Positions 43,750-45,642 of a stretch of 64,000 nt of DNA are shown piece by piece. The notes under the pieces were generated by a model. The model was given only the letters and a program-made list of their open reading frames with translations, did no database searches and was not told the DNA's origin. Positions within the stretch are counted from its first letter, which is position 1; every line of letters starts with the position of its first letter. The stretch comes from a phage. A program made the position numbers and the translations under genes. The stretch is from the sequence record PZ386947.1. One strand, written 5' to 3'.

Positions 43750-43825
43750 TGGTCGAGGCAGTAGGGATCGAACCTACGACCTAGGACTTAGAAGGTCCTT
43801 GCTCTTCCTTCTGAGCTATGCCCCG
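43750..43825 (-). tRNA. tRNA-Arg (anticodon UCU)
   Basis: Hand-folded: acceptor CGGGGCA/TGCCTCG, T-arm CCTAC-GATCGAA-GTAGG (plus view), anticodon loop CTTCTAA, encoded CCA. Confidence 0.85.
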
Positions 43826-43829
43826 TAAT

Positions 43830-43919
43830 TGGGGTGACCGATGGGAGTCGAACCACCCGAGTCGCAATGACAATGGATTTACAGTCCACACCGCTACCTC
43901 TACGGGATAACTCCCCTTA
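43830..43919 (-). ncRNA. tRNA-like RNA with Tyr-type anticodon loop (possible pseudo-tRNA or stable RNA)
   Basis: Sits between tRNA-Arg and tRNA-Ile with CCA-like end; good anticodon stem-loop GUGGA-CUGUAAA-UCCAU but T-stem and acceptor stem do not pair canonically. Confidence 0.35.
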
Positions 43920-43929
43920 ATTCTTAATT

Positions 43930-44004
43930 TGGTGGCCCTGGGTGGAATTGAACCACCATCTGGCGATTATGAGTCGCTTGCTTGAACCTTCCAGCTACAG
44001 GGCC
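43930..44004 (-). tRNA. tRNA-Ile (anticodon CAU, Ile2-type; Met not excluded)
   Basis: Acceptor GGCCCTG, T-arm GGTGG-TTCAATT-CCACC, anticodon loop CTCATAA, encoded CCA. Confidence 0.8.
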
Positions 44005-44005
44005 T

Positions 44006-44081
44006 TGGTGCTGATTGACGGAATCGAACCGCCGACCTTCTCATTACAAGTGAGTTGCTCTACCTACTGAGCTAAATCAGC
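44006..44081 (-). tRNA. tRNA-Thr (anticodon UGU)
   Basis: Acceptor GCTGATT, T-arm GGCGG-TTCGATT-CCGTC, anticodon loop CTTGTAA, encoded CCA. Confidence 0.85.
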
Positions 44082-44086
44082 AAAAC

Positions 44087-44176
44087 TGGCGGAGGCGATA
44101 GGATTTGAACCTATGAGTCGCCGGAGCGACTGCCGGTTTTCAAGACCGGTGCATTAAACCACTCTGCCACGCCTCC
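44087..44176 (-). tRNA. tRNA-Ser (anticodon UGA), class II
   Basis: Sequence GGAGGCGTGGCAGAGTGG...CCGGTCTTGAAAACCGG... with long variable arm; matches T4 tRNA-Ser as I recall it. Confidence 0.9.
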
Positions 44177-44182
44177 AAATAT

Positions 44183-44833
44183 TTATATATTGTTAATTTG
44201 ATTTAGAATTCTTTTTGCTTGAGTATGACTTACGCCAATATGCTTAGCATATTTAGACAATTCGCCACGTTTAGAAAAATCATATAATTTAGAAATTTCT
44301 ATTCTTCTTTTTCTTTCATCCGCAGAAACTTTTGCTTCGTTTGCTTTTGCTATTTTACGTTTAGCTTCTTGAGAATGAGTTTTACCAGCAAAGCCATTCT
44401 TCATTAATCCATTTGAAGACCATCCTTTTAATTTTCCGTTAGAATGTGCCTTTTTAACACCCAATGAAATTAATTCGCGTTGCTGATCTGTCATAGGATA
44501 ATTATTTATATGATCCCATCCACCTTCACCTCCAAGTTTTAAATTATACACATCTGGTCTATTTAAAAACTCTTCTGTGACAATATTTTTCTCGGCTTCA
44601 AGCATAGATTCTTTATCGTCAAAATACTCTAATATTTCTTTAGAAAAATTTTCTATACCATATTTATCTTGGGCTCTTTTTAATAATTTACCAGAACCCA
44701 TATATCCATCATCTAAATTTTCGGTAGAATGCACACCAATATAAATTTTATTATTAATTTTATTTGTTATTTTATAAAGATAAAAATGCATATCAGTCCC
44801 TAATAAAGAACTGAGCGTCTCACGACGAGTCAT
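44183..44833 (-). CDS. segB: GIY-YIG homing endonuclease (SegB-like)
   Basis: 216 aa; GIY-YIG motif FYLYKITNKINNKIYIGVH; C-terminal DNA-binding region; sits inside the tRNA cluster as T4 segB does. Confidence 0.85.
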   Translation of the reverse strand: MTRRETLSSLLGTDMHFYLYKITNKINNKIYIGVHSTENLDDGYMGSGKLLKRAQDKYGIENFSKEILEYFDDKESMLEAEKNIVTEEFLNRPDVYNLKLGGEGGWDHINNYPMTDQQRELISLGVKKAHSNGKLKGWSSNGLMKNGFAGKTHSQEAKRKIAKANEAKVSADERKRRIEISKLYDFSKRGELSKYAKHIGVSHTQAKRILNQINNI

Positions 44834-44837
44834 AAAT

Positions 44838-44911
44838 TGGAGCGGATAATGAGAATCGAACTCACATCATCAGATTGGAAGTCTGAGGTAATACCATTAT
44901 ACGATATCCGC
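44838..44911 (-). tRNA. tRNA-Gly (anticodon UCC)
   Basis: Sequence GCGGATATCGTATAATGGTATTACCTCAGACTTCCAATCTGATGATGTGAGTTCGATTCTCATTATCCGCTCCA; 3' end is 5 nt from the segB start codon. Confidence 0.9.
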
Positions 44912-44916
44912 AAATT

Positions 44917-45003
44917 TGGTGCGAGAAGTGGGACTCGAACCCACAAGGAAATCATTCCGCAGCATTTTAAGTGCTGTGCCTTTACCAATTTGACCATTCT
45001 CGC
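44917..45003 (-). tRNA. tRNA-Leu (anticodon UAA), class II
   Basis: Acceptor GCGAGAA, long variable arm, anticodon loop CTTAAAA, T-arm GTGGG-TTCGAGT-CCCAC, encoded CCA. Confidence 0.88.
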
Positions 45004-45009
45004 GCTATA

Positions 45010-45642
45010 TTATTTATTACGTGAAAAAGACTGTTCTATCAATTCTGGACACTTTCGTTCTATCCATTTTCTAGCTTTTTGTGGGCTTATACCTATTATT
45101 TTAGCAGCTTTACTAACCCATCCAAATTTAGAATAATCGATTTTAACTAATTCTTCGTAAATTTCATCAGTTAAAATCTTTTCATTAATATTTACCAGTA
45201 AATGATATAATTTATTATCATTAGCAATTTTAATGAATCTTTTATAGTTTCCGCCTTTACTTAAACCTAATGAAGTAATTGCAGATGATATAGTAGCCGA
45301 ATTTAATAGTGCGTTTAAAATTTCTTCATCACTAACATTATAACGCTTTTTATTATTTTTAATATTTTTACCAGCAAAAGTATCAGTTTGCGAATGGCAG
45401 TTTGGACATAATAATCTTAAATTTGATTTAAGATGATTTTTGTTATTTCCATCAATATGGTCTAATTGCAGAACAATATGCTTATTTTGCCATTTTGAAA
45501 TTTTACAAATTGCACACTCATATGGAAAAATATTTTCTTTTATTATTTTGTCTTTCAGCTTTCCTGTACTAAAATTTGGATGTTTTCCTTCAAAAATTTC
45601 AGCTAATTTAGTATCCATAATATGATTCCCAATTATTAACAA
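45010..45642 (-). CDS. HNH homing endonuclease (zinc-finger HNH type)
   Basis: 210 aa; CAIC...HIVLQLDHIDGNNKNHLKSNLRLLCPNCH HNH-Zn motif; stop codon 7 nt from the tRNA-Leu 5' end. Confidence 0.85.
   Translation of the reverse strand: MLIIGNHIMDTKLAEIFEGKHPNFSTGKLKDKIIKENIFPYECAICKISKWQNKHIVLQLDHIDGNNKNHLKSNLRLLCPNCHSQTDTFAGKNIKNNKKRYNVSDEEILNALLNSATISSAITSLGLSKGGNYKRFIKIANDNKLYHLLVNINEKILTDEIYEELVKIDYSKFGWVSKAAKIIGISPQKARKWIERKCPELIEQSFSRNK

Follow-up and report, generated by a model that had tools for sequence, protein, structure and literature searches.

The locus described here is a transfer RNA (tRNA) operon in a stretch of phage DNA of 64,000 nucleotides (nt) (PZ386947.1; 'the window'), in which an HNH endonuclease gene and a SegB-type GIY-YIG endonuclease gene occupy the places of tRNA-Gln and tRNA-Pro and a tRNA-Tyr/tRNA-His hybrid lies further downstream. 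Positions 43300-46300 are 100% identical to Shigella phage CM8 (MK962750.1 / NC_054939.1; Tequatrovirus), which was isolated on E. coli BL21. In the deposited CM8 record this region is already annotated with six tRNAs, one 'homing endonuclease' and one 'HNH endonuclease'. All features of the window given below are on the minus strand.

We counted a tRNA as canonical when ARAGORN called a cloverleaf and its Rfam RF00005 score exceeded the gathering score of 29 bits. Over the whole window ARAGORN found six tRNAs, every one on the minus strand, and all six qualified, with an ARAGORN anticodon for each and Rfam scores of 59.3-72.9 bits: tRNA-Leu(TAA) at 44917-45003 (59.3 bits), tRNA-Gly(TCC) at 44838-44911 (65.8 bits), tRNA-Ser(TGA) at 44087-44176 (62.6 bits), tRNA-Thr(TGT) at 44006-44081 (72.9 bits), a tRNA with a CAT anticodon at 43930-44004 (59.9 bits) and tRNA-Arg(TCT) at 43750-43825 (66.1 bits). 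The initial annotation of this DNA, made from the sequence alone, had listed the same six and reported no canonical tRNA-Gln or tRNA-Pro. Both statements hold: neither Gln nor Pro was found in the window by ARAGORN or Rfam, and ARAGORN detected zero tRNAs in the remaining ~103 kb of the CM8 genome. Relocation of Gln or Pro elsewhere in CM8 is therefore ruled out, and six is the tRNA count of the whole genome. The CAT tRNA had been called tRNA-Ile. Its anticodon is as stated and its naming is divided, Met being the choice of ARAGORN and several annotators and Ile-CAT that of other relatives' records; it is either of the Ile2 type, read after lysidine modification, or tRNA-Met. The cluster had also been pictured as bracketed by the two endonuclease genes, which is not the case: the HNH gene comes first in the operon, while Gly and Ser enclose the GIY-YIG gene within it.

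The free-standing HNH gene (45010-45618) encodes 202 aa and probably begins at ATG 45618, the RefSeq start; the mechanical open reading frame (ORF) (45010-45642) reaches TTG 45642. Its stop codon lies 7 nt from the 5' end of tRNA-Leu, as first annotated. We aligned the region at base level with T4 and with the relative KAW1E185, which is 99.2% identical to CM8 across shared DNA. A cassette of about 619 bp (about 45006-45624) stands for tRNA-Gln nucleotides 8 to about 71. On the upstream side, identity with both phages spans the promoter region and TGGGAAT (45625-45631), a 7-nt stub of the Gln 5' acceptor strand, and then breaks; on the downstream side it returns at AG-C-GCGAGAA, which comprises the last two Gln bases, the spacer and tRNA-Leu. 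Beyond the replacement the flanks are otherwise identical to KAW1E185 and T4. T4 carries the six tRNAs of CM8 plus Gln and Pro, as the initial annotation had it, and no HNH gene at the corresponding place; the alignment that it had proposed thus puts the HNH gene at the T4 tRNA-Gln position, and no intact Gln or Pro remains in the interval.

To place this junction among related phages we used a probe of 811 nt across both HNH junctions, which matched 521 phage records. The HNH allele was present in 64 of them, as a one-piece match with identical junctions. The state of the others, here and at the Pro site, was read from 60 rows spread down each ranking; the sampled HNH-free alleles matched as two flanking pieces ~62 nt apart, with the gap annotated as tRNA-Gln and flank identities up to 99.5%. 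In none of the sampled records did the HNH gene and tRNA-Gln occur together. It is thus a free-standing gene, and genomes that are collinear apart from it either have it at this one site or lack it. Among the records listed from the 64 that carry most of the gene, the cassette DNA is at least 98.8% identical, and in many records the protein is 100% identical, which fits recent spread; carriers include phages with flanks up to ~5% divergent.

By inspection, the HNH protein has an HNH motif and the zinc-binding Cys pairs that the initial annotation had read as a zinc finger (C35xxC38, D53-H54, N66, C71xxC74-H75), and it matched HNH PHROGs (phrog_14736, 412 bits; phrog_10822, E 2.5e-29). A related piece of DNA was seen in Edwardsiella phage PEi20 (locus 1501-1749), where the interval between tRNA-Leu and tRNA-Met holds an unannotated HNH fragment (residues 5-87, 55% identity) that is probably a decayed endonuclease gene.

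The GIY-YIG gene also encodes 202 aa (44183-44791). Its start codon is probably ATG 44791, since this is the RefSeq start, aligns with the T4 and T6 SegB N-termini and follows a hairpin sequestering the Shine-Dalgarno sequence; the same start reproduces the Y17/G19 numbering of T6 SegB. An alternative upstream ATG at 44833 gives the mechanical ORF 44183-44833, whose first codon and the tRNA-Gly 3' end are 5 nt apart, as first reported. In CM8 and KAW1E185 a cassette of about 655 bp (about 44178-44832) lies between unchanged tRNA-Gly and tRNA-Ser genes, where T4 has five spacer bases, tRNA-Pro and one further base. According to the base-level alignment, the cassette displaces tRNA-Pro and about 6 spacer bases. 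A probe of Ser, cassette and Gly matched 538 phage records, and 57 of these carried the full GIY-YIG gene between Ser and Gly as a one-piece match; the sampled others had a 250-bp Ser-Pro-Gly interval, with flanks up to 100% identical. Like the HNH gene, this is a free-standing gene whose presence at one fixed position distinguishes genomes that are otherwise collinear. The suggestion of the initial annotation that the endonuclease genes had taken the places of Gln and Pro is thus borne out by the junction alignments and by the either/or alleles in the sampled records.

The GIY-YIG catalytic domain was recognized by Pfam (PF01541; 27 bits, cut-off 22.6), a NUMOD3 motif scored 20.4 bits, which is exactly its cut-off, and the protein matched phrog_314 (E 2.3e-54). 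Residues 1-96 are near-identical to T4 and T6 SegB, including Y17 and G19, and the DNA there is 97-99% identical. Over residues 97-202, T4 and T6 SegB aligned at scattered positions only, and DNA homology to the two segB genes ends at window position 44503, which is the domain boundary. The C-terminal half matches instead an endonuclease of Klebsiella phage Mineola and phrog_16521. Judged by these alignments, the protein is a mosaic of a SegB catalytic domain and a different DNA-binding half. The label 'SegB-like' given to it at first is apt for the catalytic domain; the C-terminal half and the genomic slot differ from those of T4 segB.

A similarity between the two endonucleases was also observed. 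Their C-termini (GIY-YIG, 44183-44320; HNH, 45010-45140) share a helix-turn-helix-like module (DFSKRGELSKYAKHIGVSHTQAKR and DYSKFGWVSKAAKIIGISPQKARK); both proteins match phrog_16521, and BLASTP aligned them with 12/24 identities (E 2e-4). This suggests that one DNA-binding module is common to two nuclease families.

The GIY-YIG gene is preceded by a leader of 46 nt (44792-44837) that begins directly after the CCA of the upstream tRNA. Folding predicted a 9-bp hairpin at 44793-44814 that covers the Shine-Dalgarno-like AGGGA (-14.1 kcal/mol, z -2.0). T6 has an identical leader, there placed after tRNA-Tyr, and in both phages the junction reads CCA followed by ATTT. Leader and hairpin are conserved in Mineola, with pair-preserving changes, and in all three phages the leader starts directly after the CCA of the preceding tRNA. 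The preferred cut of SegB is immediately 3' of CCAR at tRNA 3' ends (PMC2330249). We also considered the leader as a decayed 5' half of tRNA-Pro and rejected this, as MAFFT aligned the GCTCAGTT stretch alone. With a tRNA-Tyr before it in T6 and an intact Pro gene after it in Mineola, the leader is taken as part of the cassette.

The third change in the operon lies between the CAT tRNA and tRNA-Arg, an interval of 104 nt in CM8 and 369 nt in KAW1E185. Alignment with KAW1E185 revealed a ~269-bp deletion between identical 11-nt T-loop repeats (GGTTCGACTCC) of tRNA-Tyr and tRNA-His, which removed the Tyr 3' end, all of Asn, a spacer and the His 5' part. The repeat occurs in both tRNA-Tyr and tRNA-His of KAW1E185, and the junction in CM8, as in phage IME339, falls in this shared sequence. 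CM8 thus lost Tyr, Asn and His by a deletion that involved no insertion. What is left is a hybrid at 43830-43916, with a 5' part from tRNA-Tyr(GTA) and a 3' part from tRNA-His joined in GGTTCGACTCC at 43844-43854.

On the Tyr cloverleaf, the hybrid forms 3/7 acceptor pairs and 3/5 T-stem pairs and has C as discriminator, compared with 7/7, 5/5 and A in the intact tRNA-Tyr of KAW1E185. ARAGORN made no call on the hybrid, although it calls the intact Tyr in relatives, and the Rfam score was 22.7 bits, under the gathering score. The intact KAW1E185 tRNA-Tyr (locus 2304-2386) itself scored merely 30.9 bits in Rfam, as tRNA-Sec, and the VEc74 record flags its own tRNA-Tyr as a pseudogene; covariance models are poor for tRNA-Tyr with its long variable arm. 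Since an intact phage tRNA-Tyr scores so poorly, Rfam is a weak test of the hybrid and the stem counts carry the argument. On this basis we judge the hybrid, as modelled on the cloverleaf, to be non-functional.

A 40-nt junction probe matched CM8 and IME339 only, among 50,697 phage records, and had no exact match in IMG/VR viral contigs. IME339 (locus 2542-2646), isolated like CM8 on an E. coli BL21 strain, has the same Tyr/His junction, with the 3' end GGTCCCCCCCA where CM8 has GGTCACCCCA. The two hybrids differ at one anticodon-stem base and at the 3' end, and the 5' half of each matches a different intact Tyr allele known elsewhere, which hints at two separate origins. The idea that the hybrid works as a tRNA and is rescued in IME339 by the change from CACCCC to CCCCCCC was rejected: the IME339 hybrid forms 6/7 acceptor pairs but 2/5 T-stem pairs (in one register), and neither ARAGORN nor Rfam called it.

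Comparison of the operon among relatives shows how far CM8 has been reduced. KAW1E185 has ten tRNAs in the order Gln, Leu, Gly, [GIY-YIG], Ser, Thr, CAT-tRNA, Tyr, Asn, His, Arg. VEc74 reads [HNH], Leu, Gly, Pro, Ser, Thr, Met, Tyr, Asn, Arg; Lutter has the same order, except that a 160-aa ORF substitutes for Thr; and JEP6 reads [HNH], Leu, Gly, Pro, Ser, Thr, Met, [segB], Arg. These three phages are all HNH-positive and Gln-negative. T6 has Gln, Leu, Gly, Thr, Met, Tyr, [segB], Arg, and IME339, which has no endonuclease gene in the cluster, Gln, Leu, Gly, Pro, Ser, Thr, Met, [hybrid], Arg. The union of alleles in the compared phages is an eleven-tRNA operon, of which CM8 is the most reduced form seen. 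T4, the yardstick of the initial annotation, does encode eight tRNAs as stated there, but it is the wrong baseline, as the closest relatives of CM8 have ten. The losses of Tyr, Asn and His and the hybrid were missed at first.

Two further irregularities were seen in this comparison. In T6 (locus 3010-3169) Gly is followed directly by Thr, 11 nt away, without Pro and Ser, which may be another deletion between tRNA genes. In Lutter, the 160-aa ORF (locus 1729-2211) sits in the tRNA-Thr slot of its relatives; as a third endonuclease it was rejected, having no credible Pfam match.

Upstream of the operon we noted a putative T4 middle-type promoter (45701-45727), with a MotA-box-like TTTGCTTTA at 45719-45727, a 12-nt spacer and TATTAT at 45701-45706. 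The stretch is invariant in an alignment of CM8, KAW1E185 and T4, and a middle promoter lies directly upstream of the T4 tRNA cluster (PMC2330249); 45701-45727 may act as the middle promoter of the CM8 operon. A sigma-70 scan, made with a tool that has no models for the middle and late promoters of T4, was uninformative, with 18 sites where 11.3 ± 3.6 were expected for DNA so rich in AT. Just upstream of the promoter lies a 171-aa ORF (45718-46233; phrog_2290, function unknown), which is present in CM8, KAW1E185 and VEc74 and absent from T4, T6, Lutter and JEP6; it is a further insertion/deletion polymorphism at the operon edge.

At the other end, alignment with T4 (about 98% identity) placed homologues of two of its stable RNAs: species 2, or rnaD, at about 43267-43384, and species 1, or rnaC, at about 43122-43260. 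They are not annotated in the CM8 record, and Rfam gave no match at an E-value of 1 or below in 43122-43384. A strong intrinsic-terminator-like hairpin with a T run (43048-43071) ends the RNA operon, and the KAW1E185 record annotates a terminator at the matching position. A 116-aa ORF (43381-43731; phrog_3355, function unknown) lies between tRNA-Arg and rnaD, its stop codon touching the predicted rnaD 5' end; T4 lacks it, and there tRNA-Arg adjoins rnaD directly. The operon would thus run from the middle-type promoter through the tRNAs, rnaD and rnaC to the terminator.

Two cassette substitutions, HNH for Gln and GIY-YIG for Pro, and one Tyr-His deletion account for the CM8 layout. We think it probable that a T4-type tRNA operon was reduced here by three independent events and that the two cassettes are homing elements. 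The ancestral operon would have carried ten or eleven tRNAs in the order Gln-Leu-Gly-Pro-Ser-Thr-Ile-Tyr-Asn-His-Arg. Each enzyme would break the endonuclease-free allele in a co-infecting relative, and repair from the endonuclease-bearing genome would bring the cassette in and take the tRNA gene out; from the alleles compared, we infer such homing of both cassettes into the tRNA genes they replaced. As the flanks are alike in both allele types, self-immunity would be due to the missing tRNA gene or the junctions, which points to targets in or at the replaced genes: in or at tRNA-Gln for the HNH enzyme, and at the Gly-Pro junction or within tRNA-Pro for the GIY-YIG enzyme. Because tRNA ends lie 5-7 nt from the ORF boundaries, both endonuclease mRNAs would be excised from the tRNA precursor and trimmed by tRNA processing. 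The leader hairpin, by covering the ribosome-binding site, could keep translation of the GIY-YIG protein low, a control also proposed for segB of T4 (PMC2330249). The Tyr/His deletion would have arisen by annealing or unequal recombination at the T-loop repeat, possibly provoked by a SegB-type cut.

Several observations weigh against this account of homing. The HNH protein scored 17.3 bits against Pfam HNH (PF01844), under the cut-off of 21.4, and the either/or pattern at both sites is that of 60-row samples of each ranking rather than of every record. The Mineola homologue of the GIY-YIG gene stands beside an intact tRNA-Pro, so this element can exist without loss of Pro. The specificity of SegB is relaxed, and the enzyme cuts the T-loops of many tRNA genes, some of them in its own genome (PMC2330249); together with the coexistence in Mineola, this weakens for the GIY-YIG enzyme the argument that the target lies in the missing tRNA. 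The ORF in the Thr slot of Lutter has no recognizable nuclease domain, and ORF-for-tRNA swaps are therefore possible without a recognizable endonuclease. Lastly, IME339 shows the Tyr/His junction with no endonuclease gene in its cluster, so a resident nuclease is not needed for the deletion.

The last point bears on how the hybrid arose. It could be the scar of a SegB-type break in the T-loop, repaired by annealing, and hence the deletion counterpart of the amplification that SegB drives in T6. At the junction, the repeat GGTTCGACTCC conforms to GGTTCRANTCC, the core motif recognized by SegB (PMC2330249); 0.13 copies of this motif would be expected in the window, but there are 6, and each lies in a T-arm of tRNA type. 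A gene for a protein with the SegB catalytic domain is present in CM8 at a distance of 0.3 kb, and SegB is known to cut within tRNA genes and to drive recombination-dependent rearrangement of the locus (PMC13096335). Besides the IME339 junction, two points speak against a SegB scar: in deletion mutants of T4, homology between tRNA genes reportedly gave rise to hybrid tRNA genes (McClain and Foss, Cell 1984), and the DNA-binding half of the CM8 protein differs from that of SegB, so that its specificity may differ as well. We regard this origin as possible but doubtful; spontaneous slippage or unequal recombination is the alternative.

A reading of the cassettes that competes with homing is that the endonuclease genes are inactive or hitch-hike, and that the operon was shaped by single illegitimate swaps, homologous shuffling via the identical flanks and neutral losses of tRNAs that are dispensable on laboratory hosts. 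The T4 tRNA region is non-essential (PMC2330249), the Lutter Thr gene was replaced by a non-nuclease ORF, the shortened HNH gene left in PEi20 is evidence that genes of this kind decay, and the RB51 and RB68 records label the same GIY-YIG gene 'truncated SegB-like'. Against this, both endonuclease ORFs in CM8 are intact, the catalytic motifs of both enzymes are preserved, and the HNH DNA is at least 98.8% identical in the records listed, which include phages with flanks up to ~5% divergent. In addition, T4 and T6 SegB, with nearly the same catalytic domain as the GIY-YIG protein, are active (PMC2330249; PMC13096335). We therefore consider hitch-hiking unlikely. It is barely credible that the tRNAs are missing through an error of assembly or annotation in the CM8 record. 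Each of the two phages with the Tyr/His junction is represented by a single deposited assembly, but the HNH junctions are found in 64 records and the GIY-YIG junctions in 57, the hybrid junction is found again in IME339 with sequence differences, and 11 nt of repeat would not suffice to collapse an assembly made from reads.

Much of this picture is established. Earlier work has described endonuclease genes standing free within the tRNA clusters of T-even phages and T5, tRNA complements that vary among relatives of T4, T-loop recognition by SegB and the co-localization of SegB with tRNA genes (PMC2330249; PMC2988022; PMC13096335). The locus is a clean example of known mobile-gene behaviour rather than a new kind of system, and it changes nothing in what is established on homing endonucleases in the tRNA clusters of T-even phages and T5. 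In the literature searched we found no description of an HNH gene replacing tRNA-Gln, of one-for-one allelism of HNH with Gln and of GIY-YIG with Pro, of a domain-swapped SegB relative at the Pro slot or of a natural Tyr/His hybrid; the genome paper of ACG-C40 merely counts ten tRNAs.

A bolder and rather speculative proposal is that the tRNA operon is a site of allelic competition, in which selfish drive and not translational need sets the tRNA repertoire, and thereby how well a phage counters tRNA-cleaving defences such as Septu, and the hybrid marks a nuclease-provoked, recurrent deletion hot spot at the SegB core. There may be at least three either/or cassettes, each an allele of the tRNA gene or genes that it would itself target: HNH or Gln, the CM8-type SegB relative or Pro, and the T4/T6-type segB or Asn (with or without Tyr and His). 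The tRNA-Tyr of T6 neutralizes Septu, and phage tRNAs counter tRNA-cleaving host nucleases (PMC13096335). If cassettes spread by overwriting tRNA genes, the defence-evasion repertoire of a phage would be partly hostage to selfish elements. CM8 has no Gln, Pro, Asn or His and no working Tyr, and relatives with ten tRNAs should therefore withstand defences aimed at these tRNAs better than CM8 does. The locus also offers two uncharacterized endonucleases with well-defined candidate target intervals, and a natural case in which a catalytic GIY-YIG domain is combined with another DNA-binding partner.

Of the known systems, T4 segB (Brok-Volchanskaya et al. 2008; PMC2330249) is close to the CM8 GIY-YIG gene. 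Both are free-standing genes inside a tRNA operon and encode a NUMOD3 motif, and in both cases collinear relatives without the gene carry tRNA genes instead. The first 96 residues, with Y17 and G19, are near-identical, and the DNA encoding them is 99% identical in T4 and CM8. The two differ in residues 97-202, in the 5' leader and in position: T4 segB lies between tRNA-Ile and tRNA-Arg, in the Tyr-Asn(-His) slot, whereas the CM8 gene lies between Gly and Ser, in the Pro slot.

In T6, SegB drives segmental amplification of tRNA-Tyr against the Septu defence, and Y17 and G19 are the residues that were mutated to inactivate it (Chihara et al. 2026; PMC13096335). T6 and CM8 share the catalytic domain, the 46-nt leader after a tRNA CCA and a locus rearranged at tRNA repeats. 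In contrast to the CM8 gene, T6 segB follows tRNA-Tyr and has the T4-type C-terminal half; and T6 amplifies tRNA-Tyr, whereas CM8 lost a functional tRNA-Tyr by deletion.

Mineola (Jiaodavirus, a sister genus of Tequatrovirus; MH333064.1; locus 1791-2453) has a full-length homologue of the GIY-YIG protein, with 61% identity overall and 35/36 over the last aligned residues. Its gene, like that of CM8, comes directly after tRNA-Gly with the same leader and hairpin. Unlike CM8, Mineola infects another host genus, has another composition of the tRNA cluster and keeps tRNA-Pro immediately downstream, where it overlaps the 3' end of the gene by 10 nt.

ORFs for HNH endonucleases of the F-Tfl group are located in the tRNA cluster of T5 (PMC2330249). 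For the HNH gene, the nearest annotated relative seen outside Tequatrovirus is hegA of T5, with a low similarity of 35% identity over 84% of the protein. As in CM8, it is free-standing and abuts tRNA genes, adjoining tRNA-Ile; at the hegA locus there was no sign that it had replaced a tRNA gene. Hybrid tRNA genes arising via homology between tRNA genes have reportedly been seen before, in T4 deletion mutants (McClain and Foss, Cell 1984). As in CM8, a deletion is said to have joined two different tRNA genes inside sequence that both share. Those hybrids are said to come from laboratory T4, whereas the hybrids in CM8 and IME339 are found in natural isolates, join Tyr to His and are predicted not to fold.

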